DNA of 32,000 bases from Pseudocitrobacter vendiensis (GTDB lineage: Bacteria > Pseudomonadota > Gammaproteobacteria > Enterobacterales > Enterobacteriaceae): positions 1 through 32,000 of the forward strand of contig NZ_CALSBS010000035.1 of NCBI RefSeq assembly GCF_943590815.1, in the 5' to 3' direction. Below are positions 8,337 to 19,267 of this stretch, piece by piece. Both the position numbers and the translations under genes were made by a program. The first letter of the stretch is position 1. Every line of letters begins with the position of its first letter. Below the pieces are notes generated by a model. The model searched no databases and was not told where the DNA came from. It was given only the letters and a program-made list of their open reading frames with translations.

Positions 8337-10994
8337 GTGACTTTCTTTGATTTCTGGGGAAAAACCCGACGTGGCGAGAAAGAGGGTGGCGACGATTATC
8401 ACCTTCTTTGCTGGCATTCGCTGGATGTAGCCGCGATGGGCTATTTAATGGTCAAAAGCAATTACTTCGGGCTGGATGACTATTTTCGTCAATTAGGTTT
8501 CGCTGACACGGAGCAGGCAGCACAATTTTTCGCCTGGTTGTTGTGCTGGCACGATACTGGAAAATTTGCCCGCTCATTTCAGCAACTTTACCTGCACCCA
8601 CAACTCAAGGTTCCGGAAGGCGCAAGAAAGAATTACGAAAAGATCTCTCATTCAACGCTGGGTTACTGGTTGTGGCATCATTATTTAATTGAATGTGAAG
8701 AGTTGCTTCCCTCATCTTCACTCTCTCCCCGCAAACTTAAACGGGTAATAGAGATGTGGATGCCCATGACTACCGGGCATCATGGTCGGCCTCCTGATCG
8801 TATGGATGAACTGGATAATTTTCTGCCTGAAGACAAAGCCGCTGCACGAGATTTTCTCCTTGCAATCAAGGCACTGTTCCCGCTCATCGAGATCCCCGCA
8901 TTCTGGGATGATGACGAGGGCATTGAACTTATAAAACACCTTTCCTGGTATATCTCTGCAACCGTCGTGCTCGCAGACTGGGCGGGTTCGTCAACGCGAT
9001 TTTTTCCACGCGTCGCACACCCAATGGATATTAAAGATTACTGGCAGATTGCTTTAGCTCAGGCTCAAAACGCATTAACCGTCTTTCCTCCAAAAGCAGA
9101 AACCGCACCTTTCACTGGAATTAACACGCTGTTTCCTTTTATTGAGAACCCAACACCGTTACAGCAAAAGGTGCTGGATCTGGATATCAGCCAGCCAGGA
9201 CCGCAGTTGTTTATTCTGGAAGATGTGACTGGCGCAGGTAAAACAGAAGCGGCGCTTATCCTGGCGCACAGGTTGATGTCTGCGGGGAAAGCACAGGGTT
9301 TGTTTTTTGGCCTGCCAACAATGGCAACGGCTAATGCCATGTACGATAGGTTGGTCAAAACCTGGCTTGCTTTCTATTCGCCACAATCCCGCCCCAGCCT
9401 GGTGCTGGCACACAGCGCTCGTTCGCTAATGGATCGCTTTAACGCATCGCTGTGGTCTGGTGATTTTGTGGGGTCAGAAGAACCGGATGAACAAACGTTC
9501 AGTCAGGGATGTGCGGCCTGGTTTGCCGACAGTAACAAGAAGGCGTTGCTGGCTGAAATTGGCGTCGGCACGCTGGATCAGGCGATGATGGCGGTGATGC
9601 CGTTCAAACATAATAATCTGCGGCTTCTGGGGCTGAGTAACAAAATCCTGCTAGCCGATGAGATCCACGCCTGTGACGCTTATATGTCGTGCATTCTTGA
9701 AGGGCTGATCGAGCGGCAGGCGCGTGGCGGAAACAGCGTTATTTTGCTTTCTGCTACGTTGTCTCAACAGCAGCGTGACAAACTCGTCGCCGCCTTTGCG
9801 CGTGGTGCAGAGGGCCAGCAAGAAGCTCCGTTGCTGGAAAAAGATGATTATCCCTGGCTGACGCATGTCACGAAATCCGATGTGCATTCGCACCGGGTAG
9901 CGACGCGCAAAGACGTTGAGCGCAGCGTGAGTGTGGGTTGGCTTCATAGCGAACAAGAGTGTATTGCGCGTATCGAATCGGCGGTAAGTCAGGGGAAATG
10001 CATCGCCTGGATTCGGAATTCTGTCGATGACGCCATCCAGGTTCATCGTCAGTTACTTGCCCGCGGCGTCATTCCTGCTTCCAGCCTTTCACTTTTTCAT
10101 AGCCGCTTTGCTTTTAGCGATCGCCAGCGAATTGAAACGGAGACGCTGGCACGCTTTGGTAAAGAAGACTGTTCACAGCGTGCCGGAAAAGTCCTCATTT
10201 GTACTCAGGTCCTGGAGCAGAGCGTCGACTGCGACCTGGACGAAATGATTTCCGACCTTGCCCCTGTTGATTTGCTGATCCAGCGAGCAGGGCGATTACA
10301 GCGACATATCCGCGATATTAATGGTCAGTTAAAGCGTGACGGTAAAGACGAGCGTCACCCTCCTGTATTGCTGATTCTGGCCCCCGTCTGGAACGACTCT
10401 CCGGGTGAAGAATGGTTTGGCAGTGCCATGCGTAACAGTGCATTTGTCTATCCCGATCATGGGCGAATCTGGTTGACGCAGCGTGTGCTGCGTGAACAAG
10501 GCGCGATTCAGATGCCACACTCAGCCCGGCTTCTGATTGAATCAGTCTACGGTGAGGATGTGGTAATGCCGGAAGGGTTTGCCCGCAGCGAGCAGGAGCA
10601 AGTGGGCAAATACTACTGCGATCGTTCAATGGCTAATAAGTTTGTGCTGAACTTCAGGCCCGGCTATGCCGCCAATATCAACGATTACCTTCCGGAAAAA
10701 CTGTCGACACGTCTGGCTGAGGAGTCTGTTTCCTTGTGGTTGGCTACCTGTATTGACGGTGTGGTGAAGCCTTATGCCACTGGCGCTCACGCATGGGAAA
10801 TGAGCGTTGTCAGAGCGCGCCAAAGCTGGTGGAAAAAACATCGGGATGAGTTTTCTTTACTGGAAGGGGATGCGTTCAGGCAGTGGTGCGTTGAACAGCG
10901 GCAAGATCCGGAGATGGTAAATGTGATTTTAGTTACCGATGACGAAAGTTGCGGGTATTCGGCTACGGAGGGATTGATTGGCAAGGTTGGTTGA
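8337..10994 (+). CDS. cas3: type I-E CRISPR-associated nuclease/helicase Cas3
   Basis: 885 aa with a GTG start. HD-domain motifs (HSLDVAA, CWHDTGKF, TGHHG), helicase Walker A (TGAGKTEAA) and DExH box (LADEIHACD). Preceded by about 170 bp of extremely AT-rich DNA. Confidence 0.95.
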   Translation: MTFFDFWGKTRRGEKEGGDDYHLLCWHSLDVAAMGYLMVKSNYFGLDDYFRQLGFADTEQAAQFFAWLLCWHDTGKFARSFQQLYLHPQLKVPEGARKNYEKISHSTLGYWLWHHYLIECEELLPSSSLSPRKLKRVIEMWMPMTTGHHGRPPDRMDELDNFLPEDKAAARDFLLAIKALFPLIEIPAFWDDDEGIELIKHLSWYISATVVLADWAGSSTRFFPRVAHPMDIKDYWQIALAQAQNALTVFPPKAETAPFTGINTLFPFIENPTPLQQKVLDLDISQPGPQLFILEDVTGAGKTEAALILAHRLMSAGKAQGLFFGLPTMATANAMYDRLVKTWLAFYSPQSRPSLVLAHSARSLMDRFNASLWSGDFVGSEEPDEQTFSQGCAAWFADSNKKALLAEIGVGTLDQAMMAVMPFKHNNLRLLGLSNKILLADEIHACDAYMSCILEGLIERQARGGNSVILLSATLSQQQRDKLVAAFARGAEGQQEAPLLEKDDYPWLTHVTKSDVHSHRVATRKDVERSVSVGWLHSEQECIARIESAVSQGKCIAWIRNSVDDAIQVHRQLLARGVIPASSLSLFHSRFAFSDRQRIETETLARFGKEDCSQRAGKVLICTQVLEQSVDCDLDEMISDLAPVDLLIQRAGRLQRHIRDINGQLKRDGKDERHPPVLLILAPVWNDSPGEEWFGSAMRNSAFVYPDHGRIWLTQRVLREQGAIQMPHSARLLIESVYGEDVVMPEGFARSEQEQVGKYYCDRSMANKFVLNFRPGYAANINDYLPEKLSTRLAEESVSLWLATCIDGVVKPYATGAHAWEMSVVRARQSWWKKHRDEFSLLEGDAFRQWCVEQRQDPEMVNVILVTDDESCGYSATEGLIGKVG

Positions 10995-10997
10995 TAT

Positions 10998-11023
10998 GCC
11001 CTGGCGTCGGATGACGCCAGGGC
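10998..11023. other. 11-bp perfect hairpin immediately after the cas3 stop
   Basis: GCCCTGGCGTC-GGAT-GACGCCAGGGC. There is no convincing U-run on either strand. Its 3' arm overlaps the end of degenerate repeat psiR1. Confidence 0.6.
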
Positions 11024-11101
11024 TTATCCCCGTTGACACGGGGAACGGGAACCAATTTTAGTATCTCACTAACTTGGTTAATCCCTGGAATCAGGGAATG
11101 G
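11020..11101 (-). CRISPR. degenerate two-repeat mini-array (psiR2 - 26-nt spacer - psiR1), antisense to the cas genes; candidate crRNA-like regulatory RNA
   Basis: Read on the minus strand: CCATTCCCTGATTCCAGGGATTAACCA | AGTTAGTGAGATACTAAAATTGGTTC | CCGTTCCCCGTGTCAACGGGGATAAGCCC. The array repeat is GTGTTCCCCGCGCCAGCGGGGATAAACCG. psiR1 is 22/29 identical to it. Both pseudo-repeats keep the hairpin through compensatory changes and keep an ATAAACCG-like handle (ATAAGCCC, ATTAACCA). Confidence 0.6.
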
Positions 11102-11148
11102 ATTTATTTTATCAATGCTATTGTGATTATGATAGATGGGTAATTTCT

Positions 11149-11177
11149 ATGAGTTATTTAGAAACTAAAATTTCTAA
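11149..11177 (+). promoter_or_regulatory. putative Cascade binding site: ATG PAM plus partial protospacer for the mini-array spacer
   Basis: ATG|AGTTATTTAGAAACTAAAATTTCTAA versus spacer AGTTAGTGAGATACTAAAATTGGTTC. 18 of the first 21 positions match, with mismatches at 6, 8 and 12. The site contains or overlaps two TAAAAT -10-like hexamers (11166-11171, 11175-11180). Confidence 0.45.
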
Positions 11178-11259
11178 AATGTCCGGAACTGGAATTGAGT
11201 CACACCGTTACAAGGCGTATTTTCGTGACCAGTGAAAAGCTGCGGTGAAGAGGACTACG

Positions 11260-11400
11260 ATGTTGTCGATTTTTTTGCTTCAACTTGTGCTAAATCTGCT
11301 TTCAAAACGACAAACTAAGTTCGATTTTCGTATCACATTCAACGTCTTTTCTTTTATCCGACTCAGATTAAGTCTCCAACTAAATCTGAAAATATGGTGA
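11260..11400 (+). CDS. possible 46-aa hydrophobic/basic small ORF upstream of cse1 (unverified)
   Basis: GAAGAGGA (11247-11254) lies 5 nt upstream of ATG 11260. Product: MLSIFLLQLVLNLLSKRQTKFDFRITFNVFSFIRLRLSLQLNLKIW. The region is AT-rich, so a chance ORF is quite possible. Confidence 0.2.
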   Translation: MLSIFLLQLVLNLLSKRQTKFDFRITFNVFSFIRLRLSLQLNLKIW

Positions 11401-11443
11401 TGGACAACCGACCAGGGATGGTCTTTTTTACGAGAGGATGCGT

Positions 11444-13006
11444 ATGAACTCGTTTTCACTTCTGACAACCCCGTGGTTGCCCGTTCGTTATAAAGATGGA
11501 ACGACAGGCAAGCTGGCACCAGTCGATCTGGCTGATGAAAATGTTGTCGATATCGCTGCGCCGCGGGCAGATCTCCAGGGGGCGGCATGGCAGTTTTTGC
11601 TGGGACTACTACAAACCAGCTTCGCGCCCAAAAATCACGGTCGTTGGGATGATATCTGGGAAGACGGGCTGGAGGTTGAAAAGCTACGGGAAGCATTGCT
11701 GTCTTTAGAACACGCTTTCCAGTTTGGCCCAGATTCCCCTTCATTTATGCAGGATTTCGAGGCGCTTACGGGAGATAAAGTTCCGGTAGCTTCATTACTG
11801 CCTGAAATTCCCGGCTCTCAAACGACGAAGTTTAATAAAGACCACTTTATCAAGCGTGGTGTAACGGAACACCTGTGCCCCCATTGCTTAGCATTGGCCT
11901 TGTTCTCTTTACAGTTGAATGCACCAGCGGGCGGCAAAGGCTACCGCACCGGTTTACGCGGCGGTGGGCCGATGACGACGCTGATTGAATTACAGGAATA
12001 TCAGGGCAATCAACAAACACCCTTGTGGCGCAAACTGTGGCTCAACGTGATGCCGCAGGATGAATCTGACTTACCGCTACCCAAAAAATTTGACGATCTG
12101 GTTTTCCCCTGGCTTGGCCCGACGCGTACCAGTGAACTGGCCGGTGCGGTGGTAACTGATGATCAGGTCAACAAACTCCAGGCGTACTGGGGAATGCCTC
12201 GGCGCATACGTGTTGATTTTAATACCACGACAGTCGGCAACTGCGATATTTGCGGTGAGCAGAGCGACGCGCTCCTGAGCCTGATGACGACCAAAAATTA
12301 CGGTGCGAATTATGCCATGTGGCAGCATCCCTTAACGCCTTACCGTGTACCACTTAAAGAGGGCGGCGAGTTTTACTCGGTCAAGCCACAACCGGGCGGT
12401 TTAATCTGGCGCGACTGGTTAGGTCTTATCGAAACGGGTAAGTCAGAAAACAATACGGAACTTCCCGCGCTGGTGGTGAAACTCTTTAATCCCAGCAGTC
12501 TGAAACAGGCAAAAGTGGGCCTGTGGGGATTTGGCTATGATTTCGACAACATGAAAGCGCGCTGTTGGTACGAACACCATTTCCCGCTACTGCTCAATAA
12601 AAAAGAAGGCCAGATACCAAAGCTGCGGCTGGCTGCGCAAACGGCTTCACGGATTCTAAGTCTGTTACGGAGTGCATTGAAAGAAGCATGGTTCTCCGAT
12701 CCAAAAGGTGCACGGGGTGATTTCAGTTTTGTGGATATCGACTTCTGGAACAAAACTCAGCATCGCTTCCTGAGGTTAGTGCGTCAAATTGAAGAAGGTC
12801 AGGAGCCGGATGAATTACTCAGCAAATGGCAAAAGGAAATGTGGTTATTCGCGCGTCAGGATTTTGACGAGCGGGTATTCACTAATCCTTATGAGCCCGT
12901 TGATTTGAAACGCGTCATGACCGCGCGCAAGAAATATTTTACAACATCGGCGGAGAAGCAAAGTGCTAAAGCCGCCAGGGAGAAAAAGCAGGAGGCTGCT
13001 GAATGA
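11444..13006 (+). CDS. cse1: Cascade large subunit Cse1/CasA (Cas8e)
   Basis: About 520 aa. N-terminus LLTTPWLPVR, typical of Cse1 (compare E. coli NWIPVR). Internal Cys pairs (CPHC ... CDICG). GAGAGG (11432-11437) favours ATG 11444 over ATG 11438. First gene of the Cascade operon. Confidence 0.9.
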   Translation: MNSFSLLTTPWLPVRYKDGTTGKLAPVDLADENVVDIAAPRADLQGAAWQFLLGLLQTSFAPKNHGRWDDIWEDGLEVEKLREALLSLEHAFQFGPDSPSFMQDFEALTGDKVPVASLLPEIPGSQTTKFNKDHFIKRGVTEHLCPHCLALALFSLQLNAPAGGKGYRTGLRGGGPMTTLIELQEYQGNQQTPLWRKLWLNVMPQDESDLPLPKKFDDLVFPWLGPTRTSELAGAVVTDDQVNKLQAYWGMPRRIRVDFNTTTVGNCDICGEQSDALLSLMTTKNYGANYAMWQHPLTPYRVPLKEGGEFYSVKPQPGGLIWRDWLGLIETGKSENNTELPALVVKLFNPSSLKQAKVGLWGFGYDFDNMKARCWYEHHFPLLLNKKEGQIPKLRLAAQTASRILSLLRSALKEAWFSDPKGARGDFSFVDIDFWNKTQHRFLRLVRQIEEGQEPDELLSKWQKEMWLFARQDFDERVFTNPYEPVDLKRVMTARKKYFTTSAEKQSAKAAREKKQEAAE

Positions 13007-17304: not shown

Positions 17305-19101
17305 GTGTTCCCCGCGCCAGCGGGGATAAACCGTTCATGCTGCAAGCTCCTGTTTGTGCTTAAACGTGTTCCCCGCGCCAGCGGGGATAAACCGCGGCGT
17401 GCGTCGATTATTATGCCTGAGGATCCGTGTTCCCCGCGCCAGCGGGGATAAACCGGAATCGTGAATCAGGGAAATGAGGACGCCCGAGTGTTCCCCGCGC
17501 CAGCGGGGATAAACCGTCGTAATCAGCAGGTTTTTGCGCAGATAAAGCGTGTTCCCCGCGCCAGCGGGGATAAACCGCCTGGAAGATAAATTTTTAGGTA
17601 TTCGGCTTTGTGTTCCCCGCGCCAGCGGGGATAAACCGCAGAACAAGCCGACGTGCGCAGACGTTGGCGCGTGTTCCCCGCGCCAGCGGGGATAAACCGG
17701 CGTGGCGTAACGGTCAATTAAAACTCCCGGAGTGTTCCCCGCGCCAGCGGGGATAAACCGTATACGTGGGGGTTGCGCCAGATATTGGCGCAGTGTTCCC
17801 CGCGCCAGCGGGGATAAACCGATCTCTGCAACTGATCGCGGTCAACTTCATACGTGTTCCCCGCGCCAGCGGGGATAAACCGTTTACTCCTGATAAATAT
17901 CTTTCAGTAAAGTGGTGTTCCCCGCGCCAGCGGGGATAAACCGTTGATCCAGATAATTTCCGCGCTATCGCTGAAGTGTTCCCCGCGCCAGCGGGGATAA
18001 ACCGAATTTCAGTCAGTCGTCTCCGCCTGGCGTGAAGTGTTCCCCGCGCCAGCGGGGATAAACCGCAGGGAATGAACCGCAGCGACGGCAAACCGCTGTG
18101 TTCCCCGCGCCAGCGGGGATAAACCGCTTACCAGCAAAACCACGGAGCCGCCGGGCGCGTGTTCCCCGCGCCAGCGGGGATAAACCGAAATAAATAAAAA
18201 AGCCTCTGGTGGTGTAGATGTGTTCCCCGCGCCAGCGGGGATAAACCGTGCATTGAGTCGCAAAATGTGCGGATCCGCGAGTGTTCCCCGCGCCAGCGGG
18301 GATAAACCGTGCCAACCGATACCGGCGGCTATACAATTCGTGTGTTCCCCGCGCCAGCGGGGATAAACCGATTTATCACACGTCGCCGAACGTTATTACC
18401 ACGTGTTCCCCGCGCCAGCGGGGATAAACCGGCCGGAGGCGGCGGAATATATCGGAATAGCGGCGAGTTCCCCGCGCCAGCGGGGATAAACCGTTCAATT
18501 GCAAATGACTGGCTTTGATGCGTCAGAGTTCCCCGCGCCAGCGGGGATAAACCGGCAGGTTGAGCTGCGTCTCGAGTGGAATGGCAGAGTTCCCCGCGTC
18601 AGCGGGGATAAACCGCGCTTAACGCCCTTTCCGGCATCACATTTGAAGAGTTCCCCGCGCCAGCGGGGATAAACCGCAGGGGCCGGTTGCCCGCGAGATA
18701 GTATCGCCGAGTTCCCCGCGCCAGCGGGGATAAACCGATGTAGATGAATCCACAGACGACTGGGAATACGAGTTCCCCGCGCCAGCGGGGATAAACCGTT
18801 GCTCGATGTGAAATTCTGGAACCGCAATTTGAGTTCCCCGCGCCAGCGGGGATAAACCGGCTCCCGCGACGACGTTATCGCCGCAACAAAAGAGTTCCCC
18901 GCGCCAGCGGGGATAAACCGGCTCCCGCGACGACGTTATCGCCGCAACAAAAGAGTTCCCCGCGCCAGCGGGGATAAACCGTGAGCTAACTGTATGAAAT
19001 TATAAGCATTACCGAGTTCCCCGCGCCAGCGGGAATAAACCGAGGCTTTCGTTACGTCCACCTGGCACAATCACGAGTTCCCCGTGCCGAACAAATACCC
19101 G
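17305..19101 (+). CRISPR. type I-E CRISPR array: 30 repeats (29 nt) and 29 spacers (28 of 32 nt, one of 33 nt)
   Basis: 61-nt periodicity. Repeats 1-19 are GTGTTCCCCGCGCCAGCGGGGATAAACCG (starts 17305...18403). Repeats 20-29 begin GAG (starts 18465...19014). The terminal repeat (19075-19101) is degenerate. Spacers 26 and 27 are identical. The leader-proximal end is next to cas2. Confidence 0.99.
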
Positions 19102-19192
19102 AATCCTTGTTAACGAATATCGTTCTGATCAATTTGTTACTCGGAGGGCGCTAGTGGCGTGTATGACGCACCGCGCGGTTCAATCTGATAAG

Positions 19193-19267
19193 TAAGCCGG
19201 ACGGGAGTCGAACCCGCATAAATGCCTGTGAAAACAGGCTCCATTTGACCATTAAACGTACCGGCTT
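19193..19267 (-). pseudogene. tRNA-like element / probable tRNA pseudogene with an abnormal anticodon loop
   Basis: The minus strand AAGCCGG-TA-CGTT-TAATGGTCA-AATG-..-GCCTG-TTTTCA-CAGGC-..-GCGGG-TTCGACT-CCCGT-CCGGCTT-A folds into a cloverleaf. It has a 7-bp acceptor stem, U8, a GG-containing D-loop and a TTCGACT T-loop. The anticodon loop is 6 nt (or 8 nt with a 4-bp stem) instead of 7. Confidence 0.45.

Follow-up and report, generated by a model that had tools for sequence, protein, structure and literature searches.

Liu et al. (2023; 10.1101/2023.03.10.532045) gave the name CreR to regulatory elements built as a degenerate mini-CRISPR. In that study, the type I-E creR of Salmonella enterica ATCC 51960, located between cas3 and casA, repressed PcasA-gfp 8.6-fold via Escherichia coli Cascade. 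Repression was relieved by competing CRISPR RNAs (crRNAs) and by AcrIE8 and was abolished by mutating guide positions 1-3, and the S. enterica element was classed as toxin-less. The CreR of S. enterica has also been the subject of later work (10.1101/2024.10.29.618823). Here we describe an element that is probably of the same kind in a 32,000-nt stretch of DNA from Pseudocitrobacter vendiensis (contig NZ_CALSBS010000035.1, positions 1 to 32,000), which we call the window. It lies between cas3 and cse1 of a type I-E locus.

Related mini-arrays are widespread. Shmakov et al. (2023; PMC10120712) reported them in ~19% of bacterial I-E loci, antisense to cas3 and with targets in the cas8 promoter flanked by a protospacer-adjacent motif (PAM). 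For E. coli I-E, they predicted a mini-array opposite to cas3 whose AAG-flanked target lies downstream near Pcas and has a mismatch at position 6. In the I-E CreTA system of Citrobacter rodentium (Basta, Campbell et al., Nat Microbiol 2025; PMC12055562), cas3 is dispensable in the mouse gut, whereas the Cascade genes are needed. An open reading frame (ORF) of 96 bp and 32 codons in the 495-bp cas3-casA region encodes a toxin that must be translated. Cascade is needed there because the toxin ORF is repressed via an antisense crRNA-like RNA, CreA, with an ATG-flanked target. A type I-B CreTA has been described in Haloarcula hispanica (Li et al., Science 2021; as cited in PMC12055562 and PMC8501985).

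The principle is therefore already published, with experimental demonstrations within the same subtype and bacterial family. Antisense repeat-like hairpins beside cas3 should accordingly count as expected rather than novel. A previous, sequence-only reading of the window had proposed that a crRNA-like RNA parks Cascade near cse1, and had left it open whether such an element had been described. Comparison with relatives and the analogous I-E experiments support the proposal, but not as something undescribed, since the kind is known (Liu 2023; Shmakov 2023; Basta 2025).

RESULTS

An antisense mini-array lies beside a partly matching, PAM-flanked site

The type I-E locus of the window is complete, and its 443-bp spacer region between cas3 and cse1 contains both the mini-array and the target. 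Two degenerate repeat-like units flank one 26-nt spacer-like guide, inside the cas locus, outside the CRISPR array and in antisense orientation. The sequence-only reading had placed all three parts correctly (Table 1). When compared with the array repeat, the downstream unit is identical at 22 of 29 positions (reverse complement of 11020-11048), and no other non-array site exceeds 18 of 29 on either strand of the whole 32 kb. It folds at -13.1 kcal/mol and shares the 7-bp stem and tetraloop shape of the repeat (UCCCCGU-GUCA-ACGGGGA). One stem pair is U-A in the window and C-G in E. coli 48 and N3, both sides having changed, which bears out the compensatory exchange that had been claimed for this stem.

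The upstream unit has an indel relative to the repeat. Its hairpin has a folding energy of -9.4 kcal/mol (z = -5.1), and it is the sole non-array site in the window that fits the pattern TTCCC-N(6-10)-GGGAT-N-AACC; dinucleotide shuffles gave 0 matches. The unit ends in an 8-nt tail resembling a 5' handle, AUUAACCA, whose first base is the last stem base, A. This tail agrees with the repeat consensus AUAAACCG at 6 of 8 positions. The hairpins of both units stop 7-8 nt short of the 3' end, as in the true repeat. Thus, the upstream unit retains the 5'-handle part of a repeat and the downstream unit the 3'-hairpin part, the division of parts that Liu et al. state for such elements.

The guide matches the target at 18 of 21 positions, counting from position 1 to 21, with mismatches at 6, 8 and 12; positions 22-26 are unmatched. 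The second-best guide match in the window reaches 14 of 21, and shuffling the 336-bp region 5000 times never gave 18 of 21 or more, so the match counted in the sequence-only reading is confirmed. A repeat finder independently returned the two sites as an inverted repeat (11054-11074 and 11152-11172; 21 nt, 86%). The target had been put at about 50 bp from the mini-array. It is indeed close by, with an exact gap of 47 nt from the mini-array edge and of 77 nt between the arms. The ATG PAM is where it had been read. A partial, seed-first match beside a canonical PAM in the element's own locus is a criterion for CreR/CreA elements, and this is what we observe, with the caveat of a mismatch at seed position 8.

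A canonical second CRISPR array was considered and rejected, as the repeats reach at most 22 of 29 with an indel, the single 26-nt spacer matches its own locus, and the orientation is opposite to that of the array at 17305-19042. An Rfam scan of 10800-11600 at permissive E-values gave chance matches only (E >1).

Guide and target vary together across lineages

We gathered cas3-cse1 regions from complete E. coli genomes, from one genome per species identified via Cse1, from metagenome contigs, and from contigs encoding Cse1 homologues, including those of C. rodentium and S. enterica. An antisense mini-array is present in 13 lineages, comprising Escherichia, Salmonella, Citrobacter, Klebsiella, Atlantibacter, Chimaeribacter and further contigs, plus K-12's own. 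The parts recur in one order: the cas3 stop, a GC-rich hairpin, the antisense downstream unit ending ...TAAGCCC, a short spacer, and the upstream hairpin with its handle-like tail. This layout is carried by four window-type E. coli genomes, N3-type E. coli, the contigs L051, L058 and L060, S. enterica (L057), C. rodentium (L054), Klebsiella spallanzanii (L006), Atlantibacter (L010) and Chimaeribacter (L011); in contig L052 the mini-array alone is present. A metagenome scan with the pattern of the downstream unit (psiR1) gave 3 loci.

The upstream hairpin is kept in 12 lineages, always 7-8 nt before the spacer, while its stem letters vary (CCCUG/CAGGG, CCCUC/GAGGG, CCCAC/GUGGG, CCCCUUCC/GGAAGGGG and others). 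The handle core AACC is unchanged in 11 of the 12. Selection on the hairpins had been argued from covariation in the window, and their persistence through changing stem letters agrees with this.

For each lineage, the whole fetched locus was scanned for the best site extending from guide position 1, whatever its PAM. The best match other than the spacer itself falls within the same cas3-cse1 region in 12 of the 13 lineages, with ATG or AAG directly before it. From target to cse1 there are 253-319 bp in 10 of 11 lineages of this cas variant, whereas Chimaeribacter has 546 bp.

Eight variants that share the window's seed formed a series for testing covariation: the window itself and those with the guide seed AGTTAGTG or a 1-2-letter variant of it in E. 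coli BEC1, 48, M121 and N3, L058, L051 and S. enterica L057. An ATG or AAG PAM is kept across all 8. Position 6 is mismatched in 8 of 8, position 12 in 6 of 8 and position 18 in 4 of 8, and guide positions 1-5, 7-11 and 13-17 are matched almost always. In type I-E Cascade, every sixth guide base is flipped out and unpaired. Mismatches at 6, 12 and 18 are therefore the pattern expected from selection for Cascade-mediated recognition. At nine paired positions (3, 8, 9, 10, 14, 15, 16, 17 and 19), the matched letters differ between lineages. When spacers and targets were permuted, using one variant per distinct spacer, the true pairing gave 99 matches and was the best of 720 permutations, with no other equal. 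The comparison suggested by the sequence-only reading, of spacer-target covariation and of ATG and stem conservation, thus came out in favor of its proposal. These data indicate that guide and target co-evolve, a further criterion for CreR/CreA elements.

Two loci differ in arrangement. In L051, an Escherichia-like metagenome variant (reverse-complemented locus 4164, 4192), a single guide has two ATG-flanked targets in tandem, spaced 28 bp apart. The covarying seed change, T to C at position 3, is present in both, and the second overlaps a predicted -35 box, ATGACA. In L058 (1-640), the mini-array, target and cse1 are intact, there is no cas3 in the 600 bp upstream, and the GC-rich hairpin is absent; its downstream unit matches the array-repeat core GTTCCCCGCGCCAGCGGGGATAAACCG exactly.

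Phage mimics of the element (Cracr) were also sought. A blastn search against 50,697 phage records gave chance matches only, and viral contigs scanned for exact 20-mers had none.

The module is patchily distributed in E. coli

Of the complete E. coli genomes with this cas type, 10 of 2447 (~0.4%) carry the module, 7 of the window type and 3 of the N3 type. The cas3-cse1 region of the remaining E. coli of this cas type and of E. albertii measures 83-97 bp, and the same short region is found in Escherichia sp. MOD1-EC7003. Compared with L002, L003 and L046, the ~360-bp module (mini-array, target, promoter and small ORFs; 10995-11395) is a presence/absence polymorphism. The short region aligns with a hairpin remnant and, loosely, with the target (CTCTGAATAGTTGATAC vs CTATGAGTTATTGAGAAAC), suggesting that the module was lost by deletion.

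Candidate promoters precede the mini-array and follow the target

The sequence-only reading found no convincing minus-strand promoter. A candidate extended -10 element, TGATAAAAT, is nevertheless present and conserved. Of 12 lineages scanned, 11 (all but K-12) have the motif TGnTAnnn[T/A], starting 36-45 nt upstream of the spacer, and its place 5-9 nt upstream of the first hairpin is also conserved. Using our own position weight matrix (PWM), this element is the top minus-strand match in Atlantibacter and in S. enterica L057 and ranks in the top five for the window-type, K. spallanzanii and Chimaeribacter regions. All candidate promoters reported here derive solely from the extended -10 search and this PWM.

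On the plus strand, the top PWM match in window-type regions is a predicted promoter that starts 18 nt past the 26-nt protospacer and is probably the promoter of the Cascade operon. N3 has TTGAGA/TACTTT at the same position as its second-ranked plus-strand match. The same layout of target and predicted promoter can be read in N3, L058, L057 and C. rodentium. In L058, reading of the sequence places TTGTAG/TATTTT at the promoter position, with cse1 following after ~45 nt, as L058 lacks the 140 bp in between. By this PWM, the strongest promoter of C. rodentium lies at a distance of 8 nt from the PAM, which agrees with the published overlap of that target with an UP element (PMC12055562).

Two TAAAAT hexamers had been taken as possible regulated -10 boxes. 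Both exist in the window but are not conserved in relatives: the second is absent in BEC1, and the first changes along with the spacer in E. coli 48. They were rejected as the regulated -10.

Behind the cas3 stop, the GC-rich hairpin is an inverted repeat with 16-nt arms that are 94% complementary, the 3' one of which extends into the end of the downstream repeat-like unit. K. spallanzanii, Atlantibacter, Chimaeribacter, C. rodentium and S. enterica also have a hairpin here, with other stem letters. The hairpin behind cas3 is where the converging transcripts of cas3 and the mini-array likely end.

The cse1 leader contains another hairpin, CCA-NGGA-TGG (in the window GACCA-GGGA-TGGTC, then TTTTTT; 11406-11437), which precedes the cse1 start codon by 20-60 nt. 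Every relative with a spacer region of at least 80 bp has this hairpin, with or without a mini-array, and it is at the same place in L002, L006-L008, L010, L011, L045, L046, L054 and L057-L060. A GGA-containing Shine-Dalgarno sequence, GAGAGGAT, follows downstream, and CAGGGAUG in the leader fits CARGGAUG, the core of the CsrA/RsmA binding consensus. In Serratia, RsmA represses type I-E cas expression (PMC8450108). The hairpin is flagged by a terminator scan too and could, as an alternative to a CsrA/RsmA site, be an attenuator of read-through into cse1.

Small ORFs follow the target

Two small ORFs, a and b, lie downstream of the target in one frame, split by a TGA codon. The divergent N3 type also has ORF a, likewise of 18 aa (shuffle p = 0.0025). 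The RYKxxF of ORF a resembles NRYKRLF of the K. spallanzanii CreT (p = 0.015), and on this similarity ORF a may be a remnant of the CreT N-terminus. ORF b has a strong Shine-Dalgarno sequence (GAGGA, 11250-11254) ~30 nt past the predicted transcription start. Its N-terminus is hydrophobic, and its C-terminus, RLRLSLQLNLKIW, alternates hydrophobic and polar residues. From its sequence, ORF b is a candidate toxin-like peptide whose reality is uncertain. It has no family match in Pfam or NCBIfam, no homologue in a collection of 5.8 billion proteins, and no significant similarity to CreT (hidden Markov model E = 0.2 in a tiny database; shuffle p = 0.24-0.30), and it is absent from the L058 and N3 loci. 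L051 has a 49-aa ORF at the position of ORF b, with a similar ribosome-binding site and stop position.

The paper on CreT gave no homologues (PMC12055562). We recovered the C. rodentium CreT from L054 as MQEESTRFKCLFLRMMVRLGKKLSISFQLSLH and found that K. spallanzanii, Atlantibacter and L060 have clear homologues of it in the corresponding position. K. indica (L008) and L052 have remnants that cover the C-terminal two thirds only. CreT is a conserved 32-aa family with the consensus ..YKRLFCRLMIRLGNKLSVSFQLSVR, and nucleotide changes among the Klebsiella-type copies appear mostly synonymous by eye. A CreT profile run against translated spacer regions of the Escherichia branch gave nothing significant.

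Locus setting

The window reads cysJIH, the type I-E locus (cas3, cse1, cse2, cas7, cas5, cas6e, cas1 and cas2, all on the plus strand), the array and cysDNC (Table 1). Its cysIH is at most 98% identical to that of any complete E. coli genome, and its Cse1 is 96% identical to Cse1 of E. albertii and of an Escherichia species. In the array, the first 19 repeats start with GTG and the last 10 with GAG, so that it resembles two joined blocks. The spacer GCTCCCGCGACGACGTTATCGCCGCAACAAAA is present twice, in adjacent units (18860-18952). Just past the degenerate last repeat, ARAGORN reports a tRNA-like sequence with an abnormal two-base anticodon (19192-19267, minus strand), which is probably a tRNA pseudogene or fragment.

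Table 1. Coordinates of the features discussed, in the window unless another locus is named
Feature	Position	Strand	Sequence or remark
cas3	8337-10994	+	Stop codon 10992-10994
GC-rich hairpin	10993-11028		GATATGCCCTGGCGTC-GGAT-GACGCCAGGGCTTATC; directly behind the cas3 stop
Downstream repeat-like unit	11020-11048	-	CCGTTCCCCGTGTCAACGGGGATAAGCCC; psiR1 of the sequence-only reading, psiR2 in the naming of Liu et al.
Guide (psiS)	11049-11074	-	26 nt; AGTTAGTGAGATACTAAAATTGGTTC
Upstream repeat-like unit	11075-11101	-	6-bp hairpin UCCCUG-AUUC-CAGGGA; psiR2 of the sequence-only reading
Candidate extended -10 of mini-array	11106-11114	-	TGATAAAAT; predicted start ~11099, at the foot of the upstream hairpin
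PAM	11149-11151	+	ATG; 5' of the protospacer, on the guide-identical strand
Target site	11152-11177	+	AGTTATTTAGAAACTAAAATT(TCTAA)
ORF a	11179-11235	+	18 aa; MSGTGIESHRYKAYFRDQ
Predicted promoter beside target	11195-11223	+	-35 TTGAGT 11195-11200, 17 nt, -10 TATTTT 11218-11223; predicted start near 11230
ORF b	11260-11400	+	46 aa; MLSIFLLQLVLNLLSKRQTKFDFRITFNVFSFIRLRLSLQLNLKIW
cse1	11438-13006	+	Start annotated in E. coli relatives corresponds to 11444
CRISPR array	17305-19042	+	29 repeats; repeat GTGTTCCCCGCGCCAGCGGGGATAAACCG
CreT, C. rodentium (L054)	1350-1448 of L054		
CreT, K. spallanzanii (L006)	2849-2947 of L006		
CreT, Atlantibacter (L010)	2845-2943 of L010		
CreT, L060	1050-1148 of L060		

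DISCUSSION

A probable Cascade-guiding regulator and its rivals

The anatomy of the mini-array, the statistical significance of its match, its conservation and the co-evolution of spacer and target are observations made here. From these, we conclude that the element is probably a CreR/CreA-type regulatory mini-CRISPR of the type I-E system. Transcription, processing, binding and repression at this locus would then proceed as in the published analogous elements. Repression that needs Cascade and the guide but involves no Cas3 cleavage has been shown for the S. enterica CreR and is implied for C. rodentium. A short minus-strand transcript would begin from the extended -10 (reverse complement of 11106-11114), and Cas6e would cut it at both degenerate hairpins, leaving the 8-nt handle AUUAACCA, the 26-nt guide and a 3' hairpin supplied by the downstream unit. 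Cascade loaded with this RNA would read the ATG at 11149-11151 and pair with 11152-11172. Because pairing ends before the PAM-distal end, we propose that Cascade stays bound without recruiting Cas3. With its PAM-distal end ~20 bp upstream of the -35, the bound complex would hinder RNA polymerase or an activator. Sitting beside the predicted promoter at 11195-11223, it would lower transcription of the Cascade operon, and we propose that this gives a negative feedback sensing free Cascade.

Several points weigh against this reading. The regulated promoter at 11195-11223 is known from prediction only, and a sigma-70 two-hexamer consensus scan of both strands found no promoter. The handle deviates from consensus at 2 of 8 positions, and L052 has a mini-array with no detectable target. 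The module is also dispensable, being absent from >99% of E. coli with this cas type. Finally, at guide position 8 (base 11159) the window has T, whereas all 7 related variants have G, which matches the guide. The resulting mismatch, rG opposite dA, is found in the window alone among the 8 variants, which justifies the concern already raised about it. The type I-E seed comprises positions 1-5, 7 and 8, and a seed mismatch should strongly cut Cascade affinity. Affinity should therefore be lowered here because of the rG opposite dA, and the G-to-T change has probably weakened the Cascade circuit in this strain, which may be partly released.

These points bear on whether the element is a decaying relic, either a former CreR/CreA now inactive here or array debris, that resembles its relatives through recent common descent only. 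The seed mismatch confined to the window, the missing module in E. albertii as well as in nearly all E. coli of this cas type, and the lost target in L052 all fit this explanation. Type I-E systems of this group are also commonly silenced by H-NS, as is established for K-12. Against this, the family retains the PAM, the promoter motif, and hairpins that persist through two-sided stem changes, and it shows nine covarying paired positions across divergent lineages, with mismatches limited to flipped-out positions. Retention of the hairpins, PAM, covariation and promoter motif suggests continuing selection at the family level, the one point mutation being the sole sign of decay here, and we regard a relic as improbable. 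An imperfect inverted repeat acting as an RNA stem or as the site of a dimeric regulator, unconnected to Cascade, is far less probable still. The Escherichia and Salmonella copies are inverted, with arms 77 nt apart, and the AT-richness of the region resembles that of H-NS and LeuO sites. However, the mini-array and its target share a strand, as direct repeats, in C. rodentium, L060, K. spallanzanii and Atlantibacter, and the target there retains the PAM and the mismatches at 6 and 12. Such direct repeats cannot pair as RNA and exclude an RNA stem or palindromic protein site, the alternative that the sequence-only reading had entertained. Neither a stem nor a protein site requires a one-sided ATG or AAG or would tolerate mismatches at exactly every sixth position, and repeat-like hairpins always flank one of the copies. 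We saw neither conservation of the repeat in cas-less genomes nor a regulator footprint over both copies.

The strongest rival keeps Cascade but changes what it guards. The guide might be the antitoxin half of a CreTA addiction module, repressing the promoter of a small toxic peptide (ORF b, or the joint frame of ORFs a and b), so that loss of Cascade kills or arrests the cell. C. rodentium shares the architecture, and its 32-codon ORF is a shown toxin; K. spallanzanii, Atlantibacter and L060 have clear CreT homologues at the same place, ORF b has a well-placed Shine-Dalgarno sequence, and ORF a shares RYKxxF with CreT. Against this, ORF b lacks significant similarity to CreT and any homologue in the protein collection or family libraries, and it is absent in L058 and N3, where mini-array and target persist. 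In addition, hydrophobic ORFs of this sort arise easily in AT-rich DNA, and the Salmonella I-E element counts as toxin-less in the classification of Liu et al. We therefore consider an addiction module unlikely in the window, and a pure autoregulator (CreR) more likely than a toxin-antitoxin pair. A broader conjecture, which we hold doubtful as a whole, is that a CreA scaffold of hairpin, mini-array, target and promoter has swapped its cargo. CreT would have been kept in the Citrobacter/Klebsiella/Atlantibacter branch and lost in the Escherichia/Salmonella branch, leaving at most ORF a. Some lineages of the latter branch, including the window, would have gained the unrelated hydrophobic ORF b under the same promoter. 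On this view, ORF b would represent a new family of Cascade-repressed toxins, and the position-8 mutation would be a natural partial release.

Taking the element as a CreR/CreA-type regulator, its added value is a natural series in which PAM, seed and six-base pairing periodicity are readable across Escherichia, Salmonella, Citrobacter, Klebsiella, Atlantibacter and Chimaeribacter. Across these genera, the target may lie on either strand relative to the promoter. The patchy distribution of the module among E. coli with this cas type is a further feature of the series. This strain is a natural seed mutant and could serve to gauge the repression cost of one seed mismatch.

Comparison with described systems

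One of the described systems is archaeal. As presented in the papers that cite it, the H. hispanica CreTA resembles the window element in that a degenerate mini-CRISPR RNA steers Cascade to a partly matching, PAM-flanked promoter and represses without cleavage. It differs in being type I-B, in lying between cas6 and cas8, and in having a toxin RNA that sequesters tRNA-Arg.

In K-12 MG1655 (L050, 2884139-2884552), the antisense repeat-like unit that follows cas3 reads CACCTTCCCTACTTAAGTAGGGATAAACCG, and its 5' handle, ATAAACCG, is perfect. The best target of the K-12 guide, TTATTGGTCTTATTAT..., is AAG|TTATTCGTTTTATTAT in the Pcas region, mismatched at positions 6 and 9. Shmakov et al. probably depicted this same element, and the 'K12creA' of Liu et al. 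is probably a clone of it. Unlike the window, K-12 has the other E. coli cas variant (~43% Cse1 identity, K-12-like Shigella locus), its spacer is unrelated to that of the window, and it has no extended -10 at the equivalent place.

The S. enterica CreR shares with the window a degenerate two-repeat mini-CRISPR between cas3 and casA, an upstream unit that keeps the 5' handle and a downstream unit that keeps the 3' hairpin, and a partial match to a PAM-flanked site, there in the casA promoter region. The two guides differ, that of ATCC 51960 starting with TAGATACAGTCTTAA according to the plasmid list; at >=13/15, this guide was absent from the window and from the loci fetched up to that point. 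ATCC 51960 has an AAG PAM, 15 consecutive matches and a target ~140 bp from casA, whereas the window has ATG, 18 of 21 interrupted matches and ~290 bp. Within the literature covered, the spacer family of the window (AGTTAGTG...) is not the experimentally tested one. It does occur in another S. enterica genome, L057, whose 26-nt guide has the same seed as that of the window.

The C. rodentium CreTA differs from the window in its spacer (GTGGTGAAAGAC... vs AGTTAGTGAGAT..., unrelated), in having its target on the opposite strand, and in its proven 32-codon toxin, which has no clear homologue in the window; the two Cse1 proteins are 72% identical. The likenesses are extensive. Both are type I-E systems of the same bacterial family with a cas3-casA region of ~450-500 bp, and in both an antisense crRNA-like gene follows right after a GC hairpin behind cas3. 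Both also have an ATG PAM, mismatches at positions 6 and 12, and a target just upstream of a predicted -35 facing casA.

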